A model generated the notes under the pieces. The model saw only the letters and a program-made list of their open reading frames with translations, had not been told where the DNA came from and searched no databases. DNA of 24,000 nt from Lysinibacter cavernae (lineage in GTDB: Bacteria > Actinomycetota > Actinomycetes > Actinomycetales > Microbacteriaceae), in NCBI RefSeq assembly GCF_011758565.1, contig NZ_JAAMOX010000001.1, forward strand, positions 821,838-845,837. The letters are read 5' to 3'. The translations under genes and the position numbers were made by a program. Position 1 is the stretch's first letter, and each line of letters starts with the position of its first letter. Below, in pieces: positions 3,203-23,813 of this stretch.

Positions 3203-3252
3203 GGTAGGCAAAAACCGCTCCAAACCCGTTGGTTTGGGGCGGTTTTTGCCTA
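3203..3252. terminator. Long, near-perfect hairpin downstream of the AI-2E gene; likely a bidirectional intrinsic terminator
   Basis: GTAGGCAAAAACCGCTCCAAACC (3203-3225) pairs with GGTTTGGGGCGGTTTTTGCCTAC (3230-3252) around a CGTT loop. That is 23 bp with one G-U wobble. It starts 17 nt after the stop codon at 3186. There is no classic U-tail, which is common in Actinobacteria. Confidence 0.5.
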
Positions 3253-3367
3253 CTCGCTACGGACTTGCACGTTGTGGAACGGACGCGCGCCTTCGGTGAG
3301 ATTTGCATGATGCTGATGGTATGCTGGGAAACGGCTCAATACTGACTTAACCGGGGGGTACAAGTAC

Positions 3368-4192
3368 ATGAGGCAACCGATATTTGGCGCGCGCTCGCGC
3401 CGCAACGGAGCACCCGACGCGGACGCAAACGGCGTTGCGCAGCGGGCCGGCGACGCGTCGCAGCGTGCAGCCAGGCCAGCATCCGATTCGTCGCTTCGCT
3501 CCACGCGCATCAAAGCATTGCTCGCCGGCGCAACGGTCCTTGTTGCCGGAGGTTCGCTCACACTTGCCGCTTGGACCACCGGTTCGTCGGTGTCAACACC
3601 AACTCTCAACGCCGGCGACTTTGGCGTTGAGCTCTCCGTCGACAACGGCGCCACCTGGAAAAAAGCCTCAGGAACAACGCCTGGCGGATCACAGGTGCTG
3701 AGTTTCAGCGGGCCAGTCAGCACGCTCAAACCAGGCGTCGACCTCTACTCGCCGTTGCTCGTCCGGGGCACTCCTGGCTCGTGGTCTACCTCAACCGTGC
3801 TCACGCAGCAGGGGCTCGCGCCCGGCAGCAGCCAGGCACTTATCGATGGCCTCAGCTACGAGCTCTACGAGGTTACGGATGCCTCCGCCTGCGCGGCACC
3901 ATACGTGACGGATGCCTCCCGCTACCTGCTCAGCAAGGGCGCGAAGGCGACCCCTGCCTCGGCAACACCGGCAGCGGCCGTTTCAGGGGCAAGGCTCACC
4001 CTTGCCGCAGCAACGGACAGCACGGCTGGCCCAACCTCGACCGTCTGCCTCCACGTTCGAATGGCGAAGTCTGAGTACAACAACCAGTCCTCACTTATGA
4101 AGACCACAGGCGGTTTTGTGTTTGACCTGACGGCAGAGGAAGTTGTGGTTGAAGAGGCGGCGGGCGCAGCATCCGCTGTCACCGGTGATTAG
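3368..4192 (+). CDS. Exported protein with a SipW-cognate / alternate-type signal peptide; possible TasA/camelysin-like (Peptidase_M73-like) fibre or matrix subunit
   Basis: 274 aa. A 47-aa charged N-region is followed by the h-region ALLAGATVLVAGGSLTLAAW, then TTGSSVSTPTLNAGDFGVE. This fits the A-[YW]-x-T...AG-x-[FL] pattern of SipW-dependent signal peptides such as TasA. The C-terminal strand GGFVFDLTAEE resembles the F-x-F-x-x-x-A-x-Q ending of TasA-family proteins. The gene sits directly upstream of, and overlaps, a SipW-type peptidase gene. A GGGGGG ribosome-binding site lies upstream of the ATG. Confidence 0.7.
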   Translation: MRQPIFGARSRRNGAPDADANGVAQRAGDASQRAARPASDSSLRSTRIKALLAGATVLVAGGSLTLAAWTTGSSVSTPTLNAGDFGVELSVDNGATWKKASGTTPGGSQVLSFSGPVSTLKPGVDLYSPLLVRGTPGSWSTSTVLTQQGLAPGSSQALIDGLSYELYEVTDASACAAPYVTDASRYLLSKGAKATPASATPAAAVSGARLTLAAATDSTAGPTSTVCLHVRMAKSEYNNQSSLMKTTGGFVFDLTAEEVVVEEAAGAASAVTGD

Positions 4193-4706
4193 GCGCCGTT
4201 CCTGGCCGCTCACCGTCCTCGCCGCCCTTGGCACACTGAGCCTGGTTGGGTTTGCGTGCTCCCTGTTGTTCGGCATCCGACTCTTTGCGTTCCAGACGGA
4301 TTCGATGGAGCCGACCGTGCCCCGTGGTGCACTTGGCGTCAGTATCCGGGAGTCCGCAGAGGACATCGGCCCCGGGGACATCGTGACGGTCACGCGGGAA
4401 AACGCACTCCCGGTCACCCACCGCGTTATCACGGCGACCCCCTCTGGCGGACGAGTTGACCTCGTACTGCGAGGCGATGGTAACTCGGCTAACGACGCAA
4501 CCGTCTACAGCGTGACCGAGGTGCATCGGCTCCTCACGTTTGTTCCCTTGGTCGGATATGCGGTTGGGGCGGCGCTTTCGCAGCCACTCTTTCTTGGCTT
4601 CGCCACGGTCGCGCTTGCCGCTCTCGTCACGTGGTATTGGTGGCCGACCGCTGCCGGGCGACACGCCGGCGGGTCGCGCAGCGGCGCTGACACGGGCAGC
4701 CAATAA
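4143..4706 (+). CDS. sipW: Signal peptidase I, SipW / ER-archaeal type (S26B, Ser-His dyad)
   Basis: The order is N-terminal TM helix (WPLTVLAALGTLSLVGFACSLLFGI), catalytic Ser box FQTDSMEPTVPRG, GDIVTV box, His box PVTHRVITA, then a C-terminal TM helix (LFLGFATVALAALVTWYWW). This motif order is diagnostic of SipW-like peptidases rather than LepB-like ones. The start is uncertain: ATG 4143 overlaps the upstream gene by 50 nt, and GTG 4185 overlaps it by 8 nt. Its stop overlaps the next start in TAATG at 4704-4708. Confidence 0.85.
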   Translation: MWLKRRRAQHPLSPVIRRRSWPLTVLAALGTLSLVGFACSLLFGIRLFAFQTDSMEPTVPRGALGVSIRESAEDIGPGDIVTVTRENALPVTHRVITATPSGGRVDLVLRGDGNSANDATVYSVTEVHRLLTFVPLVGYAVGAALSQPLFLGFATVALAALVTWYWWPTAAGRHAGGSRSGADTGSQ

Positions 4707-7474
4707 TGCAACGCCGAAACGGCGCATCCGGTCGCCACTCCAACACGTCACAACGGGAATCCCCCGCCGGTCTGCGCAACGCGAGGACAAGCCTTGCAGC
4801 AGCGGTAACCGTTATCGCACTCGTGCTTGCCGTGCCGCTCAGCGCCTCGGCCGGCTGGGTCACGGCAGAGAGCGTCGCAACAACCGAGGTGGCCGCAGGA
4901 AGCTTTGAGCCCCAGTCCCGTGCGCCTGGGCAGGGCTGGGTCGATTGGGAACAACTCCAGGATGTGTGGGGCGCGCAAACCGATCTGCCGGTCTTCGACC
5001 GCGCCCCGGTCGTCCCAGGTACCACCGCATTCACCGAACGCGAGTTGCGCAATGCCGGCTCACTCGACGGGTCAAGTTCGATTGGGGCAGCGGCGGTTGA
5101 GTGGGCCGCCGCCTCCGAACTCAATGTGACGCACGTCGCCGCTGGGGTTCGACACTCCCTCATCTTGACCGCCGACGGCACAGTTTTTTCGTTCGGTTCA
5201 GGGGCAGACGGCCAACTCGGCGTTGGCCTCTTCTCAAGCTCAAGCGTTCCCGTTCAGGTGCGCGCTGGCGCCCAGGCCTCCGGCACGCCGTACCTCACCG
5301 GTATCGTCTCAATCGCTGCAGGCGACAACACCTCCTTCGCGGTTGCGGCTGACGGATCAGTGTACGCGTGGGGGTCAGGCTACTGGGGCAGCCTTGGCGA
5401 TGGAACGAGTGGCGACGGCAGACGACAGCCGCTTCCGCTCAGGGTGAAGGGAGGCTCGCAGGGCGGCCAGTACCTCACCGGCATCACTCAGCTCGCCGTC
5501 GAATCGTGGCGAGGCGGCGTTCTCGCGCTCGGCGCCGACGGGTCTGTCTACGGCTGGGGCAGCTCGGTTGCCATGCTCAACGCAAGTCGGCCGCTCGTTC
5601 CCGCTCGCATCGTTGGTGGCGAACAGGGCGGCACGTATCTCACCGGCATCACGAAGGTCAGTGCCGGGGTTGGTTTTGCGCTCGCGCTGACCAACGATGG
5701 CAGGGCTCTCGTCTGGGGCAACCGTGACGGCAACAGCGGAGAGATGGGCAATGGCGCAATCGGCGGCAACCCGGGCGCTTCCTCGGATGTCCCAACATGG
5801 CTCAAGGCAGGGCAACAACAGCCGGCGCAACCGAACGCGAACATGACAAACATCGTCGATGTGTCTGCCGGCGGCATCATGAGCATCGTTGATCGCTCTG
5901 GCAACGCCTATCTCTGGGGCGGCGGCAATCCAACGCCAACGCGCGTGGCGATCTCCGGGGCTGCGACGGTCACAACCGGCCAAGGATCACCAGTGCTGTT
6001 CACAACAACAGCCGGCGAGGTCTGGGCTGGCGGGCCTGCGGATGCCTCCGGCGCTGGCGGCGGCGCTGGCTCAGCGTACGCGCCAGTTCGGGTGCTTGGC
6101 GGCGCGCAGGGCACAACGATGCTCAACACCATCGCGCAGGTCTCCGGCGGTTCCGGGTTTGGGCTGGCGCGAACAACGACCGGTGAACTCTACACCTGGG
6201 GCCTCAACGAGCTTTCGCAGCTCGGTGTTGGGAGCCGCGTCGAGCAACTCATTGGGGTCGGCCGGATCTCGCGCGACGCAACAACGGCCAACGTCACGCT
6301 CACAACAACCATGAACGTTCAGCGCAGCGAAACCGCTCGAGCGAGCCTCGCCGTTCGGGATGACGGGACCAACCGCATCCAAGCAACCTTCCAATCGATA
6401 GATAACGGTCGCCTCACCCTCGAGACACAGGTTGGCGGAACAAACCGAACACTCTTCTCAAGCGTTGGCGAGGTTGCCTCAGAGGTTGCTGGGCTCTCGA
6501 TCACCGCCATCGGCCAATCGGTGACGCTCTATCTCAACGGCAATGTTGTCTACACGGGCGACCTGGAACCGGCAGAGGCTGCCGCGCTGGTCTCGCCGCG
6601 AGTGTCGCTCAGTGTTGAGGGAGCATCCATCTCGCAGACGGGTATCACGGCCCCGGCGGTGTGGCCAACGCTGAACGAGTGGACGGCGCGCAGCATCGGC
6701 GGCGGAACCTCCTACGGCGGCAATTTTCATTCGATCCAGTTCTCCCTTGGCAGCATGGCGTTCATGCCGGGGATGATGTACCGCAAACCAGTGCTGCACT
6801 GGAGCAATGCGTCTGGAACGCACGAGCGGGTGCTCGACCTGGCCGAATGGGCGCCCTCAGGCAACGCGGTGGTCACGGGCGGGGTCGCCTCTATGACAAG
6901 CGGTAGCGCGGTCTCCTCCCCCAAATACGTTGTTGAACAGCCCACCGTGTGGTGGATGACGTTTGAAAGCGCCATGACGGTACCCTCGCCCCTGAACGCC
7001 GACTACACGGGATTCAACGCGGGCTCGTCGTACTACGATGCGGCGGGCGCACCGATGAAGAACAACGCAAGCTGGGCGGCAAACGGCTACGCCGACGGGG
7101 TCCCACGCGAACGTATCATCCTTGCGGAAGGCTGGGAGGATCTGCGCAACTGGGCGACCGTTTCAGGATCGCCGCGCGTCACCACATCCGACTCCGCAGG
7201 CGGCATCATTGGCACGCAGTACACGCCCGTTCGGGTGCGCCGCGCACCGGTCCTGCTCTACTCGGCCTATCTCGATCCAACGTCATGCACCGCGGCAGGG
7301 GTGGGCCAGAGCTCAAGGATTGTGGATGGCTGGGACGTCCGTATCGCCCCTGGCAAGGTTGTGGATCTTGAGGCAGACGGGCAAGGGCATTCCGTCTGCC
7401 TCCAGATCAGCACTGACATCTCAGGGGTGCTTTCCGTCACATGGCCGATCACCGCCGAGGTCACGCTCGACTAG
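4706..7474 (+). CDS. Large exported RCC1-repeat (seven-blade beta-propeller) protein with a SipW-cognate signal peptide and an uncharacterised C-terminal half of about 400 aa
   Basis: 922 aa. The N-terminus has LAAAVTVIALVLAVPLSASAGWVTAESVATTEVAAGSFEP, the same motif as the 3368 gene. Seven RCC1-type blades are visible: HSLILTADGTVFSFGSGADGQLG, TSFAVAADGSVYAWGSGYWGSLGDG, GVLALGADGSVYGWGSS, FALALTNDGRALVWGNRDGNSGEMGNG, IMSIVDRSGNAYLWGGG, PVLFTTTAGEVWAGG and FGLARTTTGELYTWGLNELSQLGVG. A LamG/ConA-like stretch follows (GQSVTLYLNGNVVYTGDL). The last 270 aa or so are unrecognised. Confidence 0.85.
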   Translation: MQRRNGASGRHSNTSQRESPAGLRNARTSLAAAVTVIALVLAVPLSASAGWVTAESVATTEVAAGSFEPQSRAPGQGWVDWEQLQDVWGAQTDLPVFDRAPVVPGTTAFTERELRNAGSLDGSSSIGAAAVEWAAASELNVTHVAAGVRHSLILTADGTVFSFGSGADGQLGVGLFSSSSVPVQVRAGAQASGTPYLTGIVSIAAGDNTSFAVAADGSVYAWGSGYWGSLGDGTSGDGRRQPLPLRVKGGSQGGQYLTGITQLAVESWRGGVLALGADGSVYGWGSSVAMLNASRPLVPARIVGGEQGGTYLTGITKVSAGVGFALALTNDGRALVWGNRDGNSGEMGNGAIGGNPGASSDVPTWLKAGQQQPAQPNANMTNIVDVSAGGIMSIVDRSGNAYLWGGGNPTPTRVAISGAATVTTGQGSPVLFTTTAGEVWAGGPADASGAGGGAGSAYAPVRVLGGAQGTTMLNTIAQVSGGSGFGLARTTTGELYTWGLNELSQLGVGSRVEQLIGVGRISRDATTANVTLTTTMNVQRSETARASLAVRDDGTNRIQATFQSIDNGRLTLETQVGGTNRTLFSSVGEVASEVAGLSITAIGQSVTLYLNGNVVYTGDLEPAEAAALVSPRVSLSVEGASISQTGITAPAVWPTLNEWTARSIGGGTSYGGNFHSIQFSLGSMAFMPGMMYRKPVLHWSNASGTHERVLDLAEWAPSGNAVVTGGVASMTSGSAVSSPKYVVEQPTVWWMTFESAMTVPSPLNADYTGFNAGSSYYDAAGAPMKNNASWAANGYADGVPRERIILAEGWEDLRNWATVSGSPRVTTSDSAGGIIGTQYTPVRVRRAPVLLYSAYLDPTSCTAAGVGQSSRIVDGWDVRIAPGKVVDLEADGQGHSVCLQISTDISGVLSVTWPITAEVTLD

Positions 7475-7481
7475 CCGCCGA

Positions 7482-7504
7482 TGTGCGCGACGCGCAGGCG
7501 CACA
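7482..7504. terminator. Weak GC-rich hairpin just after the RCC1 gene stop
   Basis: TGTGCGC (7482-7488) and GCGCACA (7498-7504) form a 7-bp stem with a 9-nt loop, 8 nt after the stop at 7474. There is no U-tract. Confidence 0.3.
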
Positions 7505-10597: not shown

Positions 10598-10738
10598 TCG
10601 AGTGACCTTTCCCACCGCTTGCAGCAGCTAATGCGTTTCTGTACACGTCCACGATGCCATACTTGGACTGTTCGCGATGCACACCGGCATCGCTCGAACC
10701 GTTTTCTGCCGCACTTTCCCCCTCACAAGGAGCTTCCC

Positions 10739-11485
10739 GTGTGCACCGTCGTTGTCAGTATCGATCCTGATGCCGAGTGGCCGGTTGTGCTGCTCGGCCT
10801 CCGCGATGAGTCCCCCAGCCGGCCATGGGATCCGCCGGGGGCATGGTGGCCTGACCTTGGGACGCATGTGCGCGGCATCCACGATCAGGAGGCTGGAGGG
10901 GCCTGGCTCGCGGTTCGCGACGATGAGCAGCGCCTTGCTGTTGTACTCAATCGGGCAGAACAGCCAGCTGAGCCGGCGGGCGGTTTTGTGTCGCGTGGCA
11001 CCATCCCCCTTGCCGCAGTGACGAACGGCCTCACCTATGAAGGCACGTTCCCGACCCGCACGTTCAACCTCCTCAACGTCTCGGGAGCCACGGCCGAATA
11101 CGCCTGGTGGAACGGCACAGACGCTGGCACGGTGCCGCTTCCGCCTGGCGTCCACATGATTACGCACGAAGGGCCAAACAACCGCTCCGTTCCGCGCGTG
11201 GCCCGCTGGCTCGATGCGTTCACGTCTGCCGAACGCCCGACGGGTTCCATCGCTGACGGGATAACCGGCGCGAGCTGGAACGACTGGCTGTCGGTCCTCC
11301 GTGACAGCGCGGCGCTGCCGAGCAACCACGAGGATGCGCTGCTTCGCGCCGAGAGCGTGCACGGGCATCCGCTCGCCTCGCTTTCTGTCACCGCCGCAGC
11401 CATTGGCCACACGACCGTCGCCCTGAGCCACGCACGGCTGAGTTCGCCCGGCCATTTGGACGCCACACTCGACTGGCGCTCCTAG
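10739..11485 (+). CDS. NRDE family protein (TANGO2/DUF833-like)
   Basis: From GTG 10739 the protein begins (M)CTVVVSIDPDAEWPVVLLGLRDE. The MCT start and the (N)RDE box are the family hallmarks. AAGGAG (10727-10732) lies 6 nt upstream. The 119-codon upstream extension in the track ORF overlaps coaBC and is rejected. Confidence 0.75.
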   Translation: MCTVVVSIDPDAEWPVVLLGLRDESPSRPWDPPGAWWPDLGTHVRGIHDQEAGGAWLAVRDDEQRLAVVLNRAEQPAEPAGGFVSRGTIPLAAVTNGLTYEGTFPTRTFNLLNVSGATAEYAWWNGTDAGTVPLPPGVHMITHEGPNNRSVPRVARWLDAFTSAERPTGSIADGITGASWNDWLSVLRDSAALPSNHEDALLRAESVHGHPLASLSVTAAAIGHTTVALSHARLSSPGHLDATLDWRS

Positions 11486-11575: not shown

Positions 11576-12430
11576 CTAGGGCCGCGACCCAATAGCCAGC
11601 ATCGCAACACCAACGGCCGCAAGTACGCCGCTCGCACAACGCGTGACGGTCAGGCGTTCCCCAAGGAACACGACCGCGGCGGCACTCGCCAGAACAATGC
11701 TGCTGCTCCGTATGGCGGCGACCACGGCAACCGGCGTTGTGCCGAGGGCGACTAGGGCAAACAGGTAAGACGCAGGCACCAAAACGGCGAGCGACACGGT
11801 AATCACTGGGTGCGCACGAGCCGAGCGAAGGCCCTCTCGCATGCGGCGCCGCACAAGAACGCTGAGTACCGCGGTTTGCAGGGCGCCGAGCACCACGTAG
11901 TAGGCAAGAGGGTCAACGCCGAGCGTGACAACGACCCAGGCATCCCAGAGGGTGTAGGCGGCAATCGCGCCCCCGAGGGCGAGGGTCACTGCGACCTGCC
12001 TCGCCAACACCTCCGCGGCGCGAAGCCCACCGCCAACGAGCCCAACCGCGGCCAAGGATACACAAGCGATGCCGGCCCATCCTGTCAGGCTGAGCGGTTG
12101 CTGCCAGAGCGCAAGCCCGGCAAATGCAACAAGGACGGGGGCGATGCCGCGGGAGACCGGATACACAAACGCGGCGTCGGCGACCGAGTATCCGCGCTGC
12201 AGCAGAACCGAGTATGCGGTGTGTAGGAGCGCGCCAACCGCCCCGGCCAAGAGCCAGTCCCAGTGTGGTTCGGCGTCATGCAGCGCGAGCACGGTCACAG
12301 CGATGGGTAACAGCGCGCCAATGGCGATCAGGTTGCTGACCCAGAGCAGTGGAAGGCCGGCACCGGCTCCGCGTTTGGCCACGGTATTCCAGGCGGCGTG
12401 CGAAATGGCTGACATCAGGGCAAAAATCAT
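11576..12430 (-). CDS. DMT superfamily (EamA-like) transporter
   Basis: From ATG 12430 the protein begins MIFALMSAISHAAWNTVAKRG. It is about 284 aa and almost entirely hydrophobic, with about 10 TM helices, consistent with the EamA duplicated-domain layout. ACGGAG lies 6 nt upstream. It is divergent from a TetR gene. Confidence 0.8.
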   Translation of the reverse strand: MIFALMSAISHAAWNTVAKRGAGAGLPLLWVSNLIAIGALLPIAVTVLALHDAEPHWDWLLAGAVGALLHTAYSVLLQRGYSVADAAFVYPVSRGIAPVLVAFAGLALWQQPLSLTGWAGIACVSLAAVGLVGGGLRAAEVLARQVAVTLALGGAIAAYTLWDAWVVVTLGVDPLAYYVVLGALQTAVLSVLVRRRMREGLRSARAHPVITVSLAVLVPASYLFALVALGTTPVAVVAAIRSSSIVLASAAAVVFLGERLTVTRCASGVLAAVGVAMLAIGSRP

Positions 12431-12457
12431 TGTTGACTCCGTAGGACATTCACTCGA

Positions 12458-12470
12458 TAGACAGTGTCTA
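12458..12470. promoter_or_regulatory. Palindromic candidate TetR operator in the DMT / TetR divergent intergenic region
   Basis: TAGACA-G-TGTCTA has perfect 6-bp arms at 12458-12470. A related half-site, TAGACTGTA, is at 12478-12486. The site lies between divergent starts 12430 (-) and 12491 (+). Confidence 0.5.
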
Positions 12471-12477
12471 CTCTCGG

Positions 12478-12483
12478 TAGACT
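12478..12483 (+). promoter_or_regulatory. -10 box (TAGACT, TANNNT class) placed for a leaderless TetR transcript
   Basis: TCGGTAGACT is followed by 7 nt and then ATG 12491, with no Shine-Dalgarno sequence in between. The same GTAGACT box is seen at 15616-15621 (-) and 21567-21572 (+). Confidence 0.45.
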
Positions 12484-12490
12484 GTATGCC

Positions 12491-13102
12491 ATGGCCCATT
12501 CCCCAAACGGCACGAGCGCACACCAACGCGGCACCGCAGCCGAAACCCGCTCGCGCCTCATCGCAGAAGCCATTGCACTCTTCGAAGAAGCAGGCCTCGC
12601 AGGCTTCACCGGCAGAGAGGTCGCCAAACGCGCAGGGGTATCCCACGGCGCGCCCCGCCGCTACTTCCCTAGTAACGCGGCGCTGCTCTCAACCGTTGCC
12701 GCAAACGGCTTCGCTAGGCTCAACGAGCGAGTGGATGCCGTCGCCAGCATCGAGCGACCAGCCGCAGAGGCCCTCCAAGCGGTCGCGAGCGCTTACATCG
12801 ATTTTGCCCGCGAACAGCCAAACCTGTTTGACCTCATGTTTCGACACGATTTACTCGAACACTCAGGTGAGTCCCTGCGCGAGAACAGCCTTCCGCTACT
12901 TGGTCGCCTCCACACGTTTGCCAACGAGGCATACCCCAACGCGCATCCGGCAGCGGCAGTTGACCTGTGGCTCAACCTCCACGGCATCGCCGTACTGCAC
13001 AGCCGAAACTCACTCGAACTCGTTGGCATCGACGCAGCGGCAGCGGTCAGCCGCGCCATTCGCGCGCAGCTCGCCGAAGATTCCAGGCCTGCCGAGGACT
13101 GA
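12491..13102 (+). CDS. TetR/AcrR family transcriptional regulator
   Basis: N-terminal HTH: TRSRLIAEAIALFEEAGLAGFTGREVAKRAGVSHGAPRRYFPSNAALL. The C-terminal part is helical. The start is uncertain. I favour ATG 12491 because of the -10 box 7 nt upstream, and because GTG 12464 sits in the centre of the operator palindrome. Confidence 0.85.
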   Translation: MAHSPNGTSAHQRGTAAETRSRLIAEAIALFEEAGLAGFTGREVAKRAGVSHGAPRRYFPSNAALLSTVAANGFARLNERVDAVASIERPAAEALQAVASAYIDFAREQPNLFDLMFRHDLLEHSGESLRENSLPLLGRLHTFANEAYPNAHPAAAVDLWLNLHGIAVLHSRNSLELVGIDAAAAVSRAIRAQLAEDSRPAED

Positions 13103-13156
13103 CTTGAGAGCGGCCGTCGAGGAGAAGCCCAACAGGCAGGTCAAGGCCGCTTCGCG

Positions 13157-14851
13157 CTACCCAGCGATTGAGGCGTCGGTAATTGTTCCGTCAGGCTCGA
13201 CGGAGAGCAGGATCACGTGGCCGCCAAACATATTGCCGTCGTCGTAGTACGGATTTACTGAGCCGTCCTCGTCGATACTGAGCTCGCTAAGTCCGATCCG
13301 CTCGGCGAACGCTTCGACGGTAATCGGTGCCGATGCCAACGATTCCTCGTCGTCCTGTCGCCAGTCTTCGGCACCGTCGGCCAGTTCCGCAGCAGCAAAT
13401 GCGCGCCAGCGGGAATCAACATTCGGCATTGCTGCAACAAGCCCGACCAAGCTGGAGAGGGCCACCGCACAGGTCTCAGCTCCCTCGATGGACCCGTCAT
13501 CGACCGAGAGCGACACCGATACGTCCCGCCCGCACCACTGAATGTGACCGGAAAACCATCCGAAGTTTCGATCAAGCTCGAACTCGCCCATATCTGTCGC
13601 GATACGGACAGGCTGCGTCCAGCGCGCCAACCGCTCGTCGAGGTCCCGAACATGAACGTCTCGTTCAATCACTTGGTCGAGCGCAAATTGGTGCACCGCG
13701 TTTGGCTCGGCTGCCCCTCGCCGTAGCTGTTCCGTTTGGCCGGGGACGAAGCGACGAGCTCGCACCACATATTGACTGAACGGTTTGAGATCGTAGGTGC
13801 TTGACGTCCGCTGCCCATCTGTGGAGAGCCACGAGAGCCGCCCCTTCTCGCTGACCGAGCCGTCTTCGTCGACATAGGCGAGGAGATTCGTAGACGAGGC
13901 CCAGAGGCTACCCCCGCGTATGTGAGCCGCTCCACCAACAATTCCGCTCGTGAGTACTACGATCTCACTGCTCTCTGACGCATACTTCGCGTCAAACGCC
14001 GCGCGCTCCTGTTGCTCGGTTCCCCCGGCAACATCAGCAGCAGGGCGACGCTCAACCATCGGCGCTTTGGCGCGGAGGAAGACGGGCGCGGGAACGGTGT
14101 TGGCGTGCGTGCTGACGGCGACTAAGACCTCATCTCGAACCGCAGGCGCACCGGTATCGGACCGAAGCATCCCGACCATTGGGATGACGATCATCCGGTG
14201 GCTTGGATGCCTGGCAAGAATAAAGTCGCCGCGTGCAGCTGTCTCGGTGATCTCGGCAAGTGGGATCTTAATCGTCTGCCCGTTGGATGATGCGATGACG
14301 TGTGCATCAGTGATCCACCAGCGCGGGGCTGGCTGGGTCAGGTAGTCCTTCTCGCCCTGCCGCGATTTAACCAACAGGGTACCCCAGACAAGCGCCAGTA
14401 CCCCAAGGAAAAACAGCGCGACAACGATGCCAAGCACCGACACAACACCCAACAGCAGCGGGACCACAAGCAAGACAAGGGAAACTATCCCAATCGCAAC
14501 GGAAACCCCCACGAACACCCGGTAGTTGCGTGAGTGCATCGAGACGTTGATGAGTGACGACCACGCCGGCTTCGTCTGGTTTCTATACAGCGACCCCGCG
14601 CGATGCAGCTCCTGCGCAACCCGTATGACGTGGCCAGCTTCAAGGTCGTCAATGCTCTGCAGCGCGGGCACGTATGTCATCGTGGCCTCGCCCTCCTCGA
14701 ACAGGATGCCGTACTCTGCTTGTCCCGTCTGGACGCCGTCGTCAAAACTTACATCATCGTCAGAGCGATCCGCGTCACTGGGATTCAGTTCACCGCGTCC
14801 AACCCAGTAGCCATGCTGCCACGCGCGGGAGTGAAATTTGAGGTTGGGCAT
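13157..14851 (-). CDS. Hypothetical membrane protein: acidic N-domain, TM hairpin, YcxB/bPH-like segment, and a C-terminal domain resembling DUF2262
   Basis: 564-aa ORF with consistent coding character. A hydrophobic block (VFVGVSVAIGIVSLVLLVVPLLLGVVSVLGIVVALFFLGVLALVWGTLLV, nt 14357-14530) is followed by WWITDAHVIASSNGQTIKIPLAEITE..FILARHP, which resembles the PH-like fold found after the TM pair in YcxB-type proteins. The C-terminus (FELDRNFGWFSGHIQW...YYDDGNMFGGHVILLSVEPDG) matches my recollection of DUF2262. The domain names are low-confidence recollections. Confidence 0.65.
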   Translation of the reverse strand: MPNLKFHSRAWQHGYWVGRGELNPSDADRSDDDVSFDDGVQTGQAEYGILFEEGEATMTYVPALQSIDDLEAGHVIRVAQELHRAGSLYRNQTKPAWSSLINVSMHSRNYRVFVGVSVAIGIVSLVLLVVPLLLGVVSVLGIVVALFFLGVLALVWGTLLVKSRQGEKDYLTQPAPRWWITDAHVIASSNGQTIKIPLAEITETAARGDFILARHPSHRMIVIPMVGMLRSDTGAPAVRDEVLVAVSTHANTVPAPVFLRAKAPMVERRPAADVAGGTEQQERAAFDAKYASESSEIVVLTSGIVGGAAHIRGGSLWASSTNLLAYVDEDGSVSEKGRLSWLSTDGQRTSSTYDLKPFSQYVVRARRFVPGQTEQLRRGAAEPNAVHQFALDQVIERDVHVRDLDERLARWTQPVRIATDMGEFELDRNFGWFSGHIQWCGRDVSVSLSVDDGSIEGAETCAVALSSLVGLVAAMPNVDSRWRAFAAAELADGAEDWRQDDEESLASAPITVEAFAERIGLSELSIDEDGSVNPYYDDGNMFGGHVILLSVEPDGTITDASIAG

Positions 14852-16485: not shown

Positions 16486-17982
16486 ATGTCCAGTATGGCG
16501 GTCATCTGCGACACACATGATTCTCGTAGCTTCAGCACCCGCATCGTTGCGGTGGCCGTTGCGGCCTTCTGCGTTGTGGGCATCGGCTTTGGCCAGGGCG
16601 GCACGGCCGCGCATGCCGCACCCTCTGACGGATACGCAACGCTGACGGTGAGCGGCGACCCCGGTGCGCGCACTGGCTCCGTCGCGCTTCCCGGCGATCT
16701 CCCCACCGCAGCTTTGACCTCAACGTCGCGCATTGGCACGGTCTCCTCGGGCGCAACATCGTGGGTGCCAGGGTCCGCACCCTTCGGCACGTTTGCCGGA
16801 TCGAGCCAGAACAAGAGCTACCTCTCGCTCGACTCCGGCGGCCAGACAGCAGGCTCGGCATCCGTGACAACCTACACCTTTGCGACACCGGCGCCAGCCG
16901 GCAGCTGGGGATTTGCCCTTGGCGACGTCGATGCAGAAGCCCTCACCGTAACGGCCATCGACGCCAACGGCGACGCTATACCTTCGGCCTCGCTCGGCCT
17001 CGTCACGGCCTTCAATTACTGTGACGCGTCGCCCCGCGCCTCAGCATGTGCATCCGAGAACGCCCCCTATGCAATTCCGACCGTGTCAACTTCGGCCGAA
17101 AGCGTCACGCTCGCTGAGCCCCGCTGTATTGCCGCTAATGCATTCTGCGACACAACTGGCGCGGCGGCCTGGTTCAAACCGCTTGTACCAATTTTGTCGC
17201 TGACGGTCACCTCCGCATGGGTTTCCGGCTCGCCGAGCTACCAAACCTGGTTCGCCGACGCGAGTGCGGTGAGCGGGAGGGTTGATGCCACGTGCCTTCC
17301 AGCAGGAGGCCTTGGCCTTGACCTGCTGGATGGCTCCGGCAGCCAGGTCGCAACGACGGTAACGGCCGAGGACGGCTCGTTCGCTTTCCCCTTCGTTCTG
17401 CCGCTTCGCGACTACGCGGTCAGACTGTCGGTGGTGCCTCCTGGCAGTGAATCGGCACCTGCCACGCCGATTGATGCGGTCACCAATGGGCCTGCAGTCG
17501 GCGTCGCACTCGCGGTAGACGGCGTCTATCCGATAACCGGTTCCGTGACGGGCCAGCTACGCGCTGACCTGACCGTGACGCTCGCCGGCCCAAACGGAAC
17601 AGTCACAACCACAACGGATGCGGTCGGCGACTACGCGTTCCCACCACAGGCATCCGCTGAGTACACCGTCACGGTCACGGCTCCAAACGGCGCAACGGTC
17701 GCCCCTGCGAACCGGGTGGCAACCGTGAACTGCGCGGCAAACAACATGCTGCCGTTTGCAATCGAGGACGAACGGGCAACCGAGACCCCAACACCGCCAA
17801 CCAACCAACCACCAAGCACCGGCTCCAACACGCAGGCCTCCCAAACAACCTCGGCTGGCGGCGCAGGAAGCCTTGCCGCAACCGGAGGACAGCAGAGCGT
17901 TGGGTTCCTGACCGTTGGCCTTCTGGTCATCCTCGCTGGCATGACGCTCAGACTGAGACGCAAACCCTCGACCATGCACTGA
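16486..17982 (+). CDS. Cell-wall anchored surface protein (LAXTG sortase-E type sorting signal) with SdrD-B / carboxypeptidase-regulatory-like beta-sandwich repeats
   Basis: N-terminal signal peptide: RIVAVAVAAFCVVGIGFGQGGTAAHA-AP. Two repeats follow the pattern G-x-V...G..V.L.....G..VATT.T...G.Y.F. (GRVDATCLPAGGLGLDLLDGSGSQVATTVTAEDGSFAFP and ITGSVTGQLRADLTVTLAGPNGTVTTTTDAVGDYAFP). A Pro/Thr linker precedes the C-terminal LAATG, a hydrophobic helix and RLRRK. Confidence 0.8.
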   Translation: MSSMAVICDTHDSRSFSTRIVAVAVAAFCVVGIGFGQGGTAAHAAPSDGYATLTVSGDPGARTGSVALPGDLPTAALTSTSRIGTVSSGATSWVPGSAPFGTFAGSSQNKSYLSLDSGGQTAGSASVTTYTFATPAPAGSWGFALGDVDAEALTVTAIDANGDAIPSASLGLVTAFNYCDASPRASACASENAPYAIPTVSTSAESVTLAEPRCIAANAFCDTTGAAAWFKPLVPILSLTVTSAWVSGSPSYQTWFADASAVSGRVDATCLPAGGLGLDLLDGSGSQVATTVTAEDGSFAFPFVLPLRDYAVRLSVVPPGSESAPATPIDAVTNGPAVGVALAVDGVYPITGSVTGQLRADLTVTLAGPNGTVTTTTDAVGDYAFPPQASAEYTVTVTAPNGATVAPANRVATVNCAANNMLPFAIEDERATETPTPPTNQPPSTGSNTQASQTTSAGGAGSLAATGGQQSVGFLTVGLLVILAGMTLRLRRKPSTMH

Positions 17983-19377: not shown

Positions 19378-21429
19378 CTAACTTGCGCTGGCCCTGCGAC
19401 GCAAACGTGTCGTGGCCAAGACGGTAGCGCCAAGCAAGAAGGCAGCGATCCCTCCTGCGATAGCGGCGAACTCCGACTCGGCCCCTGTCACGGCAAGGCC
19501 GCCGTTTCCTGCGGCAGCACCGACTCCCGTGACGGGAACAGTTGCAACGGGCACGGCGGGCACCGAGTCAACAGCTGCTGCAACGGAGAGCGGCGCCCAG
19601 CCAAGCAGGCGGCCCTCTGCGTCCGTCACCGCGAGGCGATGCTGGCCGATAACGGTCGCAAGCGGGATCGTGACCGAGAATTCACCGGCAGCGCTTGCCG
19701 TCGCGCTTCCTAGCGGGGTTGGGGTGGAGAACAGGATGGCCGAAACGGTTGTGTTTGCCAGCTCGGCTCCAACCCCAACCGTCATAACCTCACCAGGTCG
19801 AACGGATGCCGGAACCGTCACCGTTCCTCGCGTTGCGTCGGTCAGGTCTGCCTCTGAAACTGGTTCAACACCGGGATTCGGCGTTGGCTCGGTCACGGTC
19901 GTGACGCAACGAATGAGGCCTTCACGCAGCGAGTGGGAGTCGGTTCCATTGTCGTCAGACCAGAAAGCCGACTTCATCCCGTTGACACACGAGGCCTCTG
20001 TGGCAAGGGTAAACCCTTCGTTGTTCACGTTTGGCATGTTGGCAGGTCGCTCGTAGAGTGCGGTGATGTTGAACGCCCCATCGGCACCAACGGCAAGCGT
20101 GGCAATTTGACCATCACAGGTGTCGTCACAGACGGCAAAGAGCGAGTTGCTCTCTGCCTCGTATTCGAGGTCCATGATGCCGGGGAATCCGCTCGAAATC
20201 GTGGCAAGTAGCGCGAACGTTCCATCGGTATTCAGCGCGAAGGCATACACGTTGCCGTTGGCTTCAATCCCAACAAAGAAGAGCCCGTCGCCGTGGCCCG
20301 CGTAGCGTGCTGGGTCGTATGCTGTGCCGGTCGACTGGTCGATAAACCCGGCCGAGACGAGGGCTGCATCGGGAATCCACTCGATAGCCTCAAGCCCAGA
20401 GTTTGGCGCAACAACGGGAAGCGCGCTCGCGAGGTTCCATTCCTGGGCCGCGGCGAGGGATGTGCCAGCGGCGCTCGGTGCGTAGCGCAGCACCGAGGGC
20501 CGGCTGACCTTACTCTGCGAGTTGTTTCGCTCACTCGAGACGTAGATGCTCGCACCAACGGCGACAACACCCTCTGCGTCAACGTCGCCCGTGCCATCCT
20601 GGTAGTGCAGGGTCTTGCCCGCTGCCCATCCATCAGCAGCGACCGGGTTCCAGTTGTCTCCGTCTGCACGCAACTGGTACAGGGTACCGGGGCCGTTCTT
20701 CACAGCCCAGATCGTGTCGCCGCCAGAGGCAAGAGGTGATCCGGCGCCAACAATGTCGAGGCCGCTGAGATTGTCTCCGTAGAATCCGGCCTCGTCAACC
20801 GTTCGAACGGAGGCCGCGCCGGGCCAGGCCACCGCGCCAACGCCTGGCTGCGGCGTTGGGTCCGGCGTTGGGTCGGGCGTCGTGCCTGGGGTACCGGGGG
20901 TGGATGTGGAACACGCATTTGCCGCGCCCTTGGTCACCGCAGTGGTGAGCCCGAACTCCCCTGTCCCATCTGGGCAGCGGCCAAACAGGCTTGCGTGCGC
21001 GGTCCAGGTCACGCTGTCGATGAGCGTCACACCGTCAGGCGCGAAGAGGCGCGCGGCGTCGTCCTTGCCAAGCCCAAAAGCGGCCTCGGTGTCGATCGCC
21101 AAGAATTGCCCGGCGGAGAGGGTCGTGCCTGCCGAGAGGACAAGCTGATGGTCATCCTCACTGTCCTTCAGCACATAGCCGGCGAGATCAACGGTTTCCG
21201 GGCCGATGTTCGTCAGCTCGACCCAGTCCCCTGGAACGCCTCCGGTTGAGACAACCTCGTTGATCCGGATACTCGAGGCAGCTGCAGCAGTGGTCTCAGC
21301 TCCTGCGGGTGCGGCGATCAACGCTGGCAACACAATGAGGGAAAGCGCAACGGTGGCGACTGGTGCAGCAACACGTGCTCGAATGAAACGTGGCGCGGTA
21401 GACAGAGTTCCGCGTCTGGCGTATGGCAT
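19378..21429 (-). CDS. LAXTG-anchored surface protein: lamin-tail domain (LTD), predicted beta-propeller (phytase-like / SdiA-regulated-like) and an Ig-like domain
   Basis: From ATG 21429 the protein begins MPYARRGTLSTAPRFIRARVAAPVATVALSLIVLPALIAAPAGA (signal peptide). LTD region: IRINEVVSTGGVPGDWVELTNIGPETVDLAGYVLKDSEDDH...ARLFAPDGVTLIDSVTW. A PTPDPTPDPTPQP linker is encoded by a 12-nt tandem repeat at 20852-20880. A long Gly/Asp-rich repetitive beta region ends in NNEGFTLA. The C-terminus has LAVTG, a hydrophobic helix and RLRRR. The 80-codon upstream extension in the track is rejected. Confidence 0.8.
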   Translation of the reverse strand: MPYARRGTLSTAPRFIRARVAAPVATVALSLIVLPALIAAPAGAETTAAAASSIRINEVVSTGGVPGDWVELTNIGPETVDLAGYVLKDSEDDHQLVLSAGTTLSAGQFLAIDTEAAFGLGKDDAARLFAPDGVTLIDSVTWTAHASLFGRCPDGTGEFGLTTAVTKGAANACSTSTPGTPGTTPDPTPDPTPQPGVGAVAWPGAASVRTVDEAGFYGDNLSGLDIVGAGSPLASGGDTIWAVKNGPGTLYQLRADGDNWNPVAADGWAAGKTLHYQDGTGDVDAEGVVAVGASIYVSSERNNSQSKVSRPSVLRYAPSAAGTSLAAAQEWNLASALPVVAPNSGLEAIEWIPDAALVSAGFIDQSTGTAYDPARYAGHGDGLFFVGIEANGNVYAFALNTDGTFALLATISSGFPGIMDLEYEAESNSLFAVCDDTCDGQIATLAVGADGAFNITALYERPANMPNVNNEGFTLATEASCVNGMKSAFWSDDNGTDSHSLREGLIRCVTTVTEPTPNPGVEPVSEADLTDATRGTVTVPASVRPGEVMTVGVGAELANTTVSAILFSTPTPLGSATASAAGEFSVTIPLATVIGQHRLAVTDAEGRLLGWAPLSVAAAVDSVPAVPVATVPVTGVGAAAGNGGLAVTGAESEFAAIAGGIAAFLLGATVLATTRLRRRASAS

Positions 21430-21566
21430 TAAATCTTCTTTCCGTGAGAAAGGCTGAAGGCCGGTTTGGCCCGCTCTAGGCTCTCCAAGCCAGGTGTCTG
21501 GTCGGTGAATGAGTCGTGAATCCGAAGGGTCAGCATCATTGCCGGTGGGTTCTTCCTCCTCGTCGG

Positions 21567-21572
21567 TAGACT
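21567..21572 (+). promoter_or_regulatory. -10 box (TAGACT) placed for a leaderless nitronate monooxygenase transcript
   Basis: TCGGTAGACT is followed by 8 nt and then ATG 21581, with no Shine-Dalgarno sequence. The 10-mer TCGGTAGACT is identical to the one at 12474-12483. Confidence 0.45.
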
Positions 21573-21580
21573 CTGAACCT

Positions 21581-22612
21581 ATGAACCCGCTGCTCGATTC
21601 TCTCGGCATCACCAACCCCGTTCTTGCGGCTCCTATGGCCGGTGGCGCGACGACACCCGAGCTGGTCATCTCCGCGGGTGAGGCAGGCAGCCTCGGATTC
21701 CTTGCGTCCGGTTACACACCTGCGGATGCGCTCGCCGCGCGAATGGCGGCCGTGCGTGACTCTGGCGTCGCGTTTGGCGTCAACCTGTTCGCGCCGAATC
21801 CGGTTCCGATCTCCGCGGGCGAGTTTGCCAGCTACGCTCGCCGCCTCCAGGCCGACGCGGATGTGTTCGGCCTTGACCTCAGCACCTCAAGCCCGCTCGA
21901 CGACGATGACGACTGGCAGAACAAACTTGATGTTCTGCTCAGCGACCCTGTCCCCGCTGTGAGCTTCACGTTCGGCATCCCCTCGACCGAGGTTATTGCG
22001 GCCCTCAAACGGGCCGGCAGCCGGATAATCCAGACCATCACGAGCGTTGACGAGGCGAAGCAGGCCGCCGAGGCAGGGGTGGATGCGCTTGTTGTTCAGT
22101 CCTGGGAGGCCGGCGGACACTCCGGCACGCTCACGCCGAATCTACTCCCCCTGCCTATTCCACTCGCTGACCTCGTCGCTTCCGTTTCCCAGGCTGTGAC
22201 GATCCCTCTGATTGCGGCCGGCGGCATCAGCTCCGCTGGGGACGTCGCTGTCGCCCTTCGCTCCGGTGCGAGCGCTGTGTCCGTCGGCACGGCGCTGTTG
22301 CGGGCCAACGAAAGCGGCGCATCGAGCGCCCACCGCGCGGCCCTCGCGGACCCGGCGTTCGCGGGGACCGCAATTACCCGCGCGTTCACCGGCCGACCGG
22401 CTCGCGGGCTCTACAACGGCTTTATGATCGCCCACAGCGACGAGGCGCCGCTTGGCTATCCTGCCGTTCACCACCTCACCTCGCCGTTGCGTAAGGCAGC
22501 GGCTGCCGCGGGAGACACGCAGCGCATGCACCTCTGGGCCGGCACCGGATTTGCGTCAGCGGAGGCCGGCCCGGTGGAGGACATCCTGAACGGGCTGGCC
22601 GCCGGAGCGTAG
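21581..22612 (+). CDS. Nitronate monooxygenase (NMO / 2-nitropropane dioxygenase family, FMN TIM barrel)
   Basis: From ATG 21581 the protein begins MNPLLDSLGITNPVLAAPMAGGATTPELVISAGEAGSLGFLASGY, a classic NMO N-terminus. Later motifs are VVQSWEAGGHSG and IPLIAAGGISSAGDVAVALRSGASAVSVGTALL. Confidence 0.85.
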   Translation: MNPLLDSLGITNPVLAAPMAGGATTPELVISAGEAGSLGFLASGYTPADALAARMAAVRDSGVAFGVNLFAPNPVPISAGEFASYARRLQADADVFGLDLSTSSPLDDDDDWQNKLDVLLSDPVPAVSFTFGIPSTEVIAALKRAGSRIIQTITSVDEAKQAAEAGVDALVVQSWEAGGHSGTLTPNLLPLPIPLADLVASVSQAVTIPLIAAGGISSAGDVAVALRSGASAVSVGTALLRANESGASSAHRAALADPAFAGTAITRAFTGRPARGLYNGFMIAHSDEAPLGYPAVHHLTSPLRKAAAAAGDTQRMHLWAGTGFASAEAGPVEDILNGLAAGA

Positions 22613-22919
22613 TCACGTCCGCGACCTCGTCGGGCGAAGCTGTACACACGCACCAGCAGGAGTTGGCAGGCAAAGACGCCAAGCAACACGACACAGACAA
22701 TTCTCATGATGGGAGGGATCGCGTCGATGCCAAGGTAGCCAAGCGGATCCCAGCTGGCGATGCCGCGCACGACTGCGGAATATTCAGAGCAGTCCGTTCA
22801 GGTATCGCGCTGCCCGATTCGACGCGATCTGGGCAAAAGCGCATTCGAGGATCATCAGGTGCTTGCAGACGGGCTGGATACTCAGGCAATACTCACGCGG
22901 CGGACAACACAGACCTCAA

Positions 22920-22968
22920 TGTCAACGAAAAGTTGACAAGACGATCTTGTCAATATAAAGTTGACAAC
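22920..22968. promoter_or_regulatory. Array of four alternating TGTCAA / TTGACA boxes (two overlapping palindromes); candidate operator
   Basis: TGTCAAC-GAAAA-GTTGACA is at 22920-22938. TTGACAAGA-CGA-TCTTGTCAA is at 22933-22953 (9-bp perfect arms). A further TTGACAAC is at 22961-22968. Box starts are 22920, 22933, 22948 and 22961, spaced about 13-15 bp with alternating orientation. The patch is AT-rich within a GC-rich genome. Confidence 0.55.
22933..22961 (+). promoter_or_regulatory. Near-consensus sigma-A type promoter driving a leaderless transcript
   Basis: -35 TTGACA (22933-22938), a 17-nt spacer, -10 TAAAGT (22956-22961, TANNNT), then 7 nt to ATG 22969. No Shine-Dalgarno sequence is present. 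Confidence 0.55.
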
Positions 22969-23202
22969 ATGAACAACACACCATCCCCCCGAACCCCAGC
23001 CCTGGCCGTCGCCCGCACCCTCTTCTTTACCGTGTGCGCAGCATTCATCATCGCCGTCGTCTCCGTCCTCCTCGCAGAAGGCCCCGGCGGGCTCAACAGC
23101 ATTGCCCTCCCCTTTATGTCGGCAATCGTCATCGCCTCGATCGGCTGGGCCGCCGCCAAAAAGCAGGCAAGCTCAGCGGGCAACTCGAAGAAGGAATCAT
23201 GA
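22969..23202 (+). CDS. Small membrane protein (77 aa, two predicted TM helices), hypothetical
   Basis: MNNTPSPRTPALAVARTLFFTVCAAFIIAVVSVLLAEGPGGLNSIALPFMSAIVIASIGWAAAKKQASSAGNSKKES. There are two hydrophobic helices and a basic tail. The stop overlaps the next start as ATGA (23199-23202). Codons are C-rich. I recognise no family. Confidence 0.55.
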   Translation: MNNTPSPRTPALAVARTLFFTVCAAFIIAVVSVLLAEGPGGLNSIALPFMSAIVIASIGWAAAKKQASSAGNSKKES

Positions 23203-23813
23203 CCCAAGCATCCGGCAACAAAGCGCCTGCGGAGTTGCTCGACGCGACCGAAATAAGCTCAATCCGGGATACGGTCGCCCGCGCAGTCCTTGATTCCTCA
23301 TCAACCCTGCGCGCCGAGCTCGAAGCCAGCGACGAGGCCTACCTCAAACTCGTTGCGGCAAGCAAAATCGCGGCCGACGAAGCGGCGAACATCCTGCAAG
23401 AATCCATCACGGGCGCCCGTTCAGCCGGCCACAGCTGGGATACCATCGGCGCCATCCTTGGCATCAGCCGCCAGGGAGCACAGCAGCGATTCAACTCCCC
23501 CAGCGCAACGTCATCCTCGGTCAAGACAAACGTTGCACCCGGCAGAAAGATCCTCAGCCCGCTCACGGCCTTCAACGAGATGGCCGCCCTCGAACGCGAA
23601 GGGAAACTCGGCTGGCATTCCGTTGACTACGGCACGCTGTACCACCTGGTCGAGGCATCCCCAATGCAGTGGGAGCATAAGCGATTGCCGTGGACGCCGG
23701 GGCAATCGGCGCGAAAGCGCATGGAGGCAGACGGCTGGGTTCAGATTCGCGAAGAAGGCTTCCCCTGGGCCTACTTTAAGCGGCAGCTCGACCTGCCAGC
23801 ACTATCCGGATAG
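23199..23813 (+). CDS. Hypothetical protein with a central helix-turn-helix motif and an uncharacterised C-terminal alpha/beta domain
   Basis: 204 aa. The HTH-like segment ARSAGHSWDTIGAILGISRQGAQQRF (about nt 23430-23492) is of the type seen at the N-terminus of many actinobacterial small regulators and Clp_N-associated proteins. The C-terminal half (EREGKLGWHSVDYGTLYHLVE...ADGWVQIREEGFPWAYFKRQL) loosely resembles DUF4177-like folds; that is a weak recollection. GAAGGAA ribosome-binding site is present, and the gene is ATGA-coupled to the upstream gene. Confidence 0.65.
   Translation: MTQASGNKAPAELLDATEISSIRDTVARAVLDSSSTLRAELEASDEAYLKLVAASKIAADEAANILQESITGARSAGHSWDTIGAILGISRQGAQQRFNSPSATSSSVKTNVAPGRKILSPLTAFNEMAALEREGKLGWHSVDYGTLYHLVEASPMQWEHKRLPWTPGQSARKRMEADGWVQIREEGFPWAYFKRQLDLPALSG

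Follow-up and report, generated by a model that had tools for sequence, protein, structure and literature searches.

The 24,000-nucleotide (nt) window analyzed here, from the actinobacterium Lysinibacter cavernae (Microbacteriaceae; contig NZ_JAAMOX010000001.1, positions 821,838 to 845,837 of the forward strand), contains a cassette of three same-strand genes that encode a candidate TasA-like fibre subunit (gene 1), a SipW-type signal peptidase (gene 2) and a large secreted protein with an RCC1-like beta-propeller (gene 3). The features of the cassette are collected in Table 1. An earlier annotation made by a model from the DNA letters (hereafter the sequence-only reading) had described three overlapping genes, and both the open reading frames (ORFs) and the two junctions were borne out. 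Gene 1 ends at a TAG codon read at 4190-4192, and the extent of its overlap with gene 2 depends on the start codon of the latter: 8 nt from the GTG at 4185, which is used in the NCBI record (173 amino acids [aa]), or 50 nt from the TTG at 4143, with a third plausible start at the TTG at 4149, 9 nt past a GAGG. Genes 2 and 3 share one nucleotide in the TAATG at 4704-4708. In Plantibacter, genes 2 and 3 overlap by 4 nt in one species and by 1 nt in a second, and the longest peptidase ORFs, which have a conserved MSTD at their start, share 11 nt with gene 1. Because the junctions overlap, coupled translation of the three genes is favoured. The exact gene 1 product is also on record in GCA_042651105.1.

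Table 1. Coordinates of the cassette and its parts within the window (a slash marks a predicted cleavage site)
Feature	Position	Strand	Description
Hairpin	3203-3254		perfect 24-bp palindromic stem, upstream of the cassette
Gene 1	3368-4192	+	ORF of 274 aa; TasA-like subunit candidate
Gene 1 residues 67-85, A/AWTTGSSVSTPTLNAGDF	3566-3622	+	predicted cleavage A67/A68, then putative donor strand
Gene 2	4143-4706	+	187 aa from TTG; SipW/archaeal-type (S26B) signal peptidase I
Gene 3	4706-7474	+	922 aa; secreted multidomain protein
Gene 3 residues 49-67, A/GWVTAESVATTEVAAGSF	4850-4906	+	predicted cleavage A-S-A49/G50, then donor-strand-like motif
Gene 3 residues ~50-137	4853-5116	+	homologous to the N-terminal half of the TasA-like family, including a V-P-G-T-T box
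Gene 3 residues ~136-510	5111-6235	+	RCC1-like beta-propeller
Gene 3 residues ~515-842	6248-7231	+	conserved in orthologues; no family match
Gene 3 residues 843-922	7232-7471	+	candidate C-terminal half of a split TasA-like domain

The synteny that the sequence-only reading had predicted for related genomes was found in three Plantibacter species (Plantibacter sp. Mn2098, P. flavus and Plantibacter sp. YIM 135249), in which the three-gene cassette is intact, gene 3 is conserved end to end at ~60% identity and the flanking genes are unrelated to the Lysinibacter neighbours. Relatives of gene 3 were found only in these three species in a scan of GTDB with one genome per species, and two metagenome scans returned no relatives of gene 3 or of the gene 1 subtype; distant relatives could escape these scans, since they rely on short conserved peptide patterns. 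The pairing of genes 1 and 2 extends further. Loci were inspected from six genera (Lysinibacter, Plantibacter, Leucobacter, Kineococcus, Paenarthrobacter and Microbacterium), and in every one the gene immediately after a member of the gene 1 family encoded a homologue of the gene 2 peptidase (E values of 1e-61 to 1e-66). This linkage was taken from the loci themselves instead of from a word-indexed search for peptidase homologues, which returned 12 proteins and missed the Plantibacter orthologues. Most of the loci have two paralogous subunits, together with either a protein that is anchored or a peptidase that is extended at its C-terminus, and the last protein in most of them has an N-terminus of the form A-x-[WF]-x-D/E... 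followed by an unrelated body. Gene 3 occupies this last slot, directly downstream of the peptidase, where other loci have smaller proteins with similar N-termini.

The sequence-only reading had bracketed the cassette with two hairpins, only the upstream of which withstood comparison with shuffled sequence. This palindrome, with arms TAGGCAAAAACCGC...GCGGTTTTTGCCTA, lies between gene 1 and an upstream AI-2E transporter gene that ends at 3186. Its folding free energy (dG) was -43.1 kcal/mol on the + strand (z -8.4, with 0 of 200 shuffles folding as well) and -39.2 kcal/mol on the - strand (z -7.5), and terminator-like sites were called on both strands. The hairpin probably delimits the unit on its 5' side, as a terminator that acts in both directions or as an insulator. 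Intrinsic terminators are usually shorter, and no second copy of the palindrome was present in the window. The weaker hairpin at 7482-7504 on the + strand (dG -18.2, z +0.5) was set aside as a chance fold because shuffled sequence folds as well (134 of 200 shuffles at least equalled it). No Rfam family matched between 2800 and 8000, and no sigma-70-like promoter was called on the + strand.

The signal peptidase and the candidate TasA-like subunit

Gene 2 had been assigned by the sequence-only reading to the SipW rather than the LepB type on the basis of SMEPT and THRV boxes and transmembrane helices at both ends, and profile hidden Markov models (HMMs), alignment and hydropathy all agree with this assignment. 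Against Peptidase_S26, the Pfam model that had been suggested as a check, gene 2 scored weakly (15.7 bits, cutoff 22.9), and stronger scores were obtained with TIGR02228 (sigpep_I_arch; 51.3 bits, cutoff 51.85, E 1.1e-13) and with the Bacillus SipW equivalog model NF046067 (45 bits, below its 190-bit cutoff). Gene 2 is a relative, and not an equivalog, of Bacillus SipW. Catalysis by SipW depends on Ser, His and Asp, and the corresponding codons of gene 2 lie at 4302-4304, 4419-4421 and 4476-4478, respectively. Among 18 aligned homologues, the invariant positions were the SMEP Ser, the THR His, the GD-x-N sequence, a further Asp and a Trp in the C-terminal hydrophobic segment; hydropathy placed one hydrophobic segment at each end of the protein (residues ~20-52 and ~133-167). 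The scores, the invariant Ser/His/Asp and the paired segments together place gene 2 with SipW and not with LepB. Gene 2 (4302-4330) and the peptidases of two of the inspected loci (L002 and L003) also have the sequence SMEPT-x-P-R-G, the Arg of which is replaced by A, S, T or Q in 13 other homologues and by K in two distant ones.

It is very improbable that gene 2 is the general type I signal peptidase of the cell and lies between two secreted proteins by accident. The housekeeping enzyme that is essential in Actinomycetota is of the LepB (Ser/Lys) type, and gene 2 is of the Ser/His SipW/archaeal type; moreover, its close orthologues were found only inside the cassette, in four species with different genomic contexts, and its distant homologues always adjoin cargo genes of the gene 1 family. 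No other S26 gene was found within the window.

By profile comparison, gene 1 is a divergent yet unambiguous member of the actinobacterial SipW-dependent-type family (E 1e-50 against a family HMM built locally). Its closest relatives, from Plantibacter, share 56-58% identity with it, and the next are actinobacterial proteins of ~200-220 aa that carry the NCBI name 'SipW-dependent-type signal peptide-containing protein'; a profile search of 1.84 billion representatives placed the family in 659 clusters at 50% identity. An older JGI name for these relatives, 'predicted ribosomally synthesized peptide with SipW-like signal peptide', was rejected because the proteins are ~200-270 aa long and have a confident fold. 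Family members have in common the sequence T-L-A-A-W-T-D-x-E, then F...F-G-I, an M-S-P-G-T box and two invariant Cys residues, which in gene 1 are C175 and C227.

An AlphaFold model of gene 1, built on the family alignment, had a mean predicted local distance difference test (pLDDT) score of 72, with 85-94 in the core. When this model was compared with the PDB by Foldseek, the best match was the Pyrobaculum bundling pilus AbpA (7ueg; E 3.9e-4, probability 1.00) and the second was the TasA fibre (8aur; E 1.5e-3, probability 0.99), followed by chaperone-usher pilins. Gene 1 as modelled thus has a TasA-like beta-sandwich (jelly-roll) fold, and to this extent the likeness to TasA and camelysin claimed in the sequence-only reading is upheld; the HMM Peptidase_M73, which that reading had suggested as a check, gave no match, as set out below.

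The shared N-terminal motif and the RCC1 protein

Genes 1 and 3 had been proposed to share an extended motif straight after their hydrophobic signal regions, and the motif proved to be real and conserved in orthologues. We searched 759 ORFs of 11 loci and the window, which amount to 179 thousand residues, and recovered the exact pattern A.W.T..SV.T....AG.F only from gene 1, gene 3 or gene 1 orthologues; a looser pattern also retrieved all gene 3 orthologues, which read GWSSGASIADSGVTTGSF, GWSAAATTSTAVLETGSF and GWSAGGTVADSGVTTGTF at this position. BLASTP of gene 1 against gene 3 aligned the two N-termini (E 0.007), and the spacing of a Trp, a hydrophobic residue and a Phe is matched between them (W69/L80/F85 in gene 1 and W51/V62/F67 in gene 3).

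In TasA, SipW cleaves after Ala27, and residues 28-38 form the donor strand that enters the next subunit, with F29, I32 and F39 making hydrophobic contacts (PMC9674648). When the gene 1 family was aligned with TasA by hhalign, the family sequence TLAAWTD (TLAAWTT in gene 1) fell on GTWAAFND, ATFTASTFGI fell on ATFASGTLDL and the xSPG/LKPG box fell on LKPGD, while the W, F and F that are conserved in 100%, 91% and 100% of the family aligned to F29, F39 and L44, respectively; the probability of this alignment was low because the template was a single sequence. The cuts listed in Table 1 were predicted from alignment to the TasA site, and we infer that the shared motif corresponds to the cleavage site and donor strand of TasA.

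The two cargo proteins of the cassette also depart from the rest of the family in the same way. In 118 further members of the family, the WTDxE motif has its D in 99% and its E in 94%, whereas in genes 1 and 3 of all four species with the cassette these positions are occupied by T/S/A and S/T. Since both proteins lack this D and E, their N-termini have changed together, as one would predict for two proteins that answer to one peptidase, to one acceptor groove, or to both. The Arg of the peptidase SMEPT-x-P-R-G sequence coincides with this loss, and the pair may represent co-adaptation of enzyme and substrate.

A monomeric gene 1 product would call for a different explanation, in which the protein is a secreted or wall-associated beta-sandwich (a camelysin-like protease or a coat protein) and the cassette is its private secretion route. 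TasA itself is soluble as a monomer (PMC9674648), and Peptidase_M73 (TasA/camelysin), the commonest weak Pfam match among gene 1 relatives (13 of the 121 aligned, best E 0.004), is annotated as a metalloprotease family. We regard this explanation as quite unlikely, since the two best structural matches of gene 1 are subunits in the fibre state, with chaperone-usher pilins next in rank; no HExxH-type metal site was seen on reading the gene 1 sequence; and the conserved W, F and F align with TasA residues of which two, F29 and F39, are named donor-strand contacts. In addition, the residues that would follow the cleavage site are unpacked in the monomer model, as judged from their pLDDT of ~45-55.

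Gene 3 contains an RCC1-like beta-propeller, which matched the Pfam models WD40_RLD (156.1 bits, cutoff 150), RCC1_2 (105.3 bits, cutoff 22) and RCC1 (75.8 bits, cutoff 21.7) as well as the structures of UVR8, HERC and RCC1 (E down to 1e-29). Ahead of the propeller, the family HMM aligns to residues 14-134, and a window free of the signal peptide (residues 61-140) aligned with the N-terminal half of the family over 65 columns (hhalign probability 72%, E 3.5e-5). Behind it, residues ~515-842 had no match in Pfam or NCBIfam; a low-confidence model gave weak Foldseek matches to folds of the CBM66, LNS and glucanase types, so that part of this region may be a lectin/LamG-like jelly roll. The last 80 residues, LLYSAYL..SC....VCLQI....VTWPITAEVT, are colinear with the C-terminal half of the family, including both Cys residues, and of the 57 windows compared they were the best that contained no signal peptide (hhalign score 18, E 0.02); taken alone, they scored at the noise level of the HMM. 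When the N- and C-terminal parts of gene 3 were joined, a single colinear alignment of 163 columns was obtained (probability 52%, E 1.4e-4), while joining the N-terminal part to a control region did not extend the alignment. An attempt to align the separate halves of the family to gene 3 was abandoned because MAFFT stacked both on the N-terminus.

These alignments raise the possibility, which we put forward tentatively, that gene 3 is itself a fibre subunit in which residues 50-137 and the last 80 residues fold together into a single domain of the pilin type, the sandwich being split in a surface loop by an insertion of ~700 residues. It is equally tentative that the insertion, comprising the propeller and the lectin-like region, makes gene 3 a built-in tip adhesin that joins the fibre by strand exchange with gene 1. 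If so, an adhesin would have arisen by insertion of domains into a TasA-type subunit and would be assembled with neither chaperone nor usher. A complete second TasA-like domain at residues 640-922 was also considered and was not supported (hhalign probability 0.3%). Within residues ~620-690 of gene 3 (6570-6660, with equivalents in L002 and L003), the sequence AVWPTLNEWTARSIGGGTSYGGNF is a weak echo of TLAAWT...G.F, and one Plantibacter orthologue reads 'LAAWTTTGSAT' there.

Gene 3 could alternatively be an independent secreted binder (a lectin or inhibitor) built on the RCC1 propeller, with nothing in common with gene 1 but the peptidase and the type of signal peptide and with no part in forming or starting a fibre. 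Its residues 136-842 are unrelated to TasA-like proteins, the match of its C-terminal half lies at HMM noise level, its structural model is uninformative, and the motif common to genes 1 and 3 could reflect recognition by the peptidase alone. Nevertheless, we judge an independent binder unlikely. The TasA-like similarity of gene 3 runs ~70 residues beyond the motif and into the fold, and half a beta-sandwich is unlikely to be stable by itself; the same slot in other loci holds a protein whose N-terminus is donor-like; derived changes in the strand are common to genes 1 and 3; and TapA provides a precedent for an accessory of this kind.

Proposed fibre assembly and known systems

The dedicated-peptidase secretion and assembly module inferred in the sequence-only reading is largely supported. 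The interpretation that we favour, with moderate confidence, is that the three genes are co-transcribed, are probably coupled in translation and, as one module, build an extracellular fibre of the TasA type. A single transcript, delimited on its upstream side by the strong hairpin, would cover the cassette, and the products of genes 1 and 3 would be exported with long signal peptides. The membrane-embedded gene 2 peptidase would then cut gene 1 after T-L-A67 and gene 3 after A-S-A49, exposing N-termini AWTTGSSVSTPTLNAGDF and GWVTAESVATTEVAAGSF, respectively, as equivalents of the TasA donor strand. Gene 1 subunits would polymerise by insertion of this strand into the beta-sandwich of a neighbouring subunit, and gene 3 would act either as a TapA-like nucleator that donates the first strand or as an adhesin at one end of the fibre, presenting its propeller as a binding module.

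Several results weigh against assembly of this kind. Gene 1 matched no Pfam family, and Peptidase_M73 (PF12389) in particular gave nothing at E <= 1. The TIGR04088 and TIGR04089 models, also suggested as checks in the sequence-only reading, recognise the relatives of gene 1 better than gene 1 itself: 117 of the 121 aligned homologues match TIGR04088 (cognate_SipW), yet genes 1 and 3 had no match to it at E <= 1, and gene 1 reached 21 bits over residues 53-103 against TIGR04089 (exp_by_SipW_III; cutoff 60, E 2.9e-4). One Plantibacter gene 3 N-terminus scored 14 bits with TIGR04089 (E 0.038), likewise below the 60-bit cutoff. Searches of the PDB with gene 1 sequence profiles gave only marginal matches of the FN3 type and did not retrieve the TasA structure, the Foldseek template modelling scores (TM-scores) of the gene 1 model were modest (0.31-0.51) and the N-terminus of that model, including the first residues of the mature protein, was disordered. 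The cassette has no obvious gene for a cell-wall or membrane anchor, unlike the Microbacterium and Leucobacter loci. Finally, the AlphaFold model of gene 3, made on a mixed alignment, had a mean pLDDT of 44, was confident only where family sequences had been aligned (in part where they were misaligned) and gave no Foldseek match at E <= 0.001; because this model is poor, the association of gene 3 with the fibre rests on its sequence.

The closest parallel to the cassette, which is known from sequence, is the tapA-sipW-tasA operon of Bacillus subtilis, likewise a three-gene unit with a private SipW-type peptidase and a subunit of jelly-roll/immunoglobulin (Ig)-like fold. In both systems there is a stop/start overlap at the peptidase gene and the mature N-terminus of the accessory protein (predicted in the cassette) resembles the donor strand of the subunit (putative in the cassette) (PMC10151520, PMC9674648). 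The N-terminus of TapA is similar to that of TasA, complements TasA and is thought to donate the first strand (PMC9674648; PMC10151520). The gene orders differ, however, being subunit-peptidase-accessory in the cassette and accessory-peptidase-subunit in Bacillus, and gene 1 falls short of Pfam Peptidase_M73. Whereas TapA is a protein of ~250 aa with an Ig V-set domain, gene 3 is a 922-aa RCC1-propeller protein with a TasA-like N-terminal half, and no TapA-related match was found in it in Pfam or NCBIfam. By its gene order, the shared motif and its predicted processing, gene 3 would be a functional counterpart of TapA that lacks homology to the TapA domain.

The actinobacterial loci of the TIGR04088/TIGR04089 type (Leucobacter, Microbacterium, Paenarthrobacter and Kineococcus) resemble the cassette in having a homologous subunit family, a homologous peptidase directly downstream and a further downstream protein with an A-x-[WF]-x-D/T... 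N-terminus. They usually encode two paralogous subunits of ~200 aa, an anchor component and a small last protein (176-567 aa), whereas the cassette has a single longer subunit (274 aa), no anchor gene, an RCC1 giant in last place and two cargo proteins without the near-invariant D and E of WTDxE.

The role proposed here for gene 3 is that proposed for AbpB of Pyrobaculum calidifontis, the larger multidomain neighbour of AbpA, for which roles in starting the filament and, by way of its distal domains, in adhesion have been suggested (PMC9245690). AbpA is the protein whose structure best matches gene 1, but the archaeal operon has no dedicated peptidase (PMC9245690), the domains of AbpB are beta-sandwiches rather than an RCC1 propeller, and no sequence similarity between the two systems was detected. 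Chaperone-usher tip adhesins such as FimH offer a further analogy, in that a domain of the pilin type, through which the adhesin enters the fibre by strand complementation, is combined with a separate binding domain; those pili are nevertheless of unrelated lineage and assembly machinery, and the cassette encodes neither a chaperone nor an usher.

The concept of actinobacterial SipW-cognate cargo is already known from NCBIfam/TIGRFAM models, and TasA homologues have been noted in Actinobacteriota (PMC9245690). What is new at this locus is an RCC1-bearing accessory with a TasA-like N-terminus, a single long subunit, the absence of an anchor gene and an altered strand motif. The sequence-only reading had stated that no experimental description existed of a cassette with an RCC1 cargo, and none was found in the literature searched, nor was any experimental work on such actinobacterial loci. 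Fibres of the TasA donor-strand type are recently recognised biofilm scaffolds of monoderm bacteria and archaea, and because TapA is not conserved, the questions of how they are nucleated, anchored and given binding specificity outside Bacillus are still open. Actinomycetota have hundreds of subunit clusters beside private SipW-type peptidases, and the cassette is a convenient test system among them because it is minimal, with three genes, a single subunit and one accessory that carries a recognisable binding module. It would allow one to ask whether exposure of the donor strand requires the peptidase, whether the fibre is started or capped by an accessory that has this strand too, and whether an RCC1 propeller carried on the fibre can act as an adhesin.

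Related loci and the surrounding window

Some of the inspected loci differ in ways that touch on anchoring and regulation. The Kineococcus radiotolerans locus (CP000750.2, 4550750-4565508; L009) is flanked by GAF-PAS-GGDEF, PAS, GerE-type and GGDEF-EAL genes, which suggests control by cyclic diguanosine monophosphate and would fit a biofilm-matrix role for the family; its downstream protein, of 567 aa, belongs to the 'choice-of-anchor G' family. In Leucobacter (L005, 5340-6551; L004, 7116-8903), the peptidase has a C-terminal extension of 200-400 aa that ends in a transmembrane segment, and in Microbacterium (L011, 8237-8866) the equivalent is a gene of its own, the product of which has a weak C-terminal anchor signal of the sortase type, a difference that looks like fusion or fission of an anchoring component. 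A 427-aa protein from an ENA metagenome (P0107) joins a TasA-like subunit (residues 1-194) to a SipW-type peptidase (residues 200-378), both complete, and is either a real fusion or an artefact of read-through or gene calling at overlapping genes.

Downstream of the cassette, an aquaporin gene lies at about 7700. Four long ORFs elsewhere in the window (10628-11455 on the - strand and 12069-13247, 22663-23202 and 23034-23813 on the + strand) had no Pfam match; some such ORFs overlap annotated-looking genes on the opposite strand and may be spurious in this high-GC genome. Other large proteins encoded in the window are one of 563 aa with DUF7021 and DUF2262 domains (13157-14851, - strand), one of 498 aa with SdrD_B and CarboxypepD_reg-like domains (16486-17982, + strand) and one of 762 aa with lamin-tail and phytase-like domains (19378-21669, - strand). 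The 498-aa and 762-aa proteins look secreted or of surface type and appear unrelated to the cassette.

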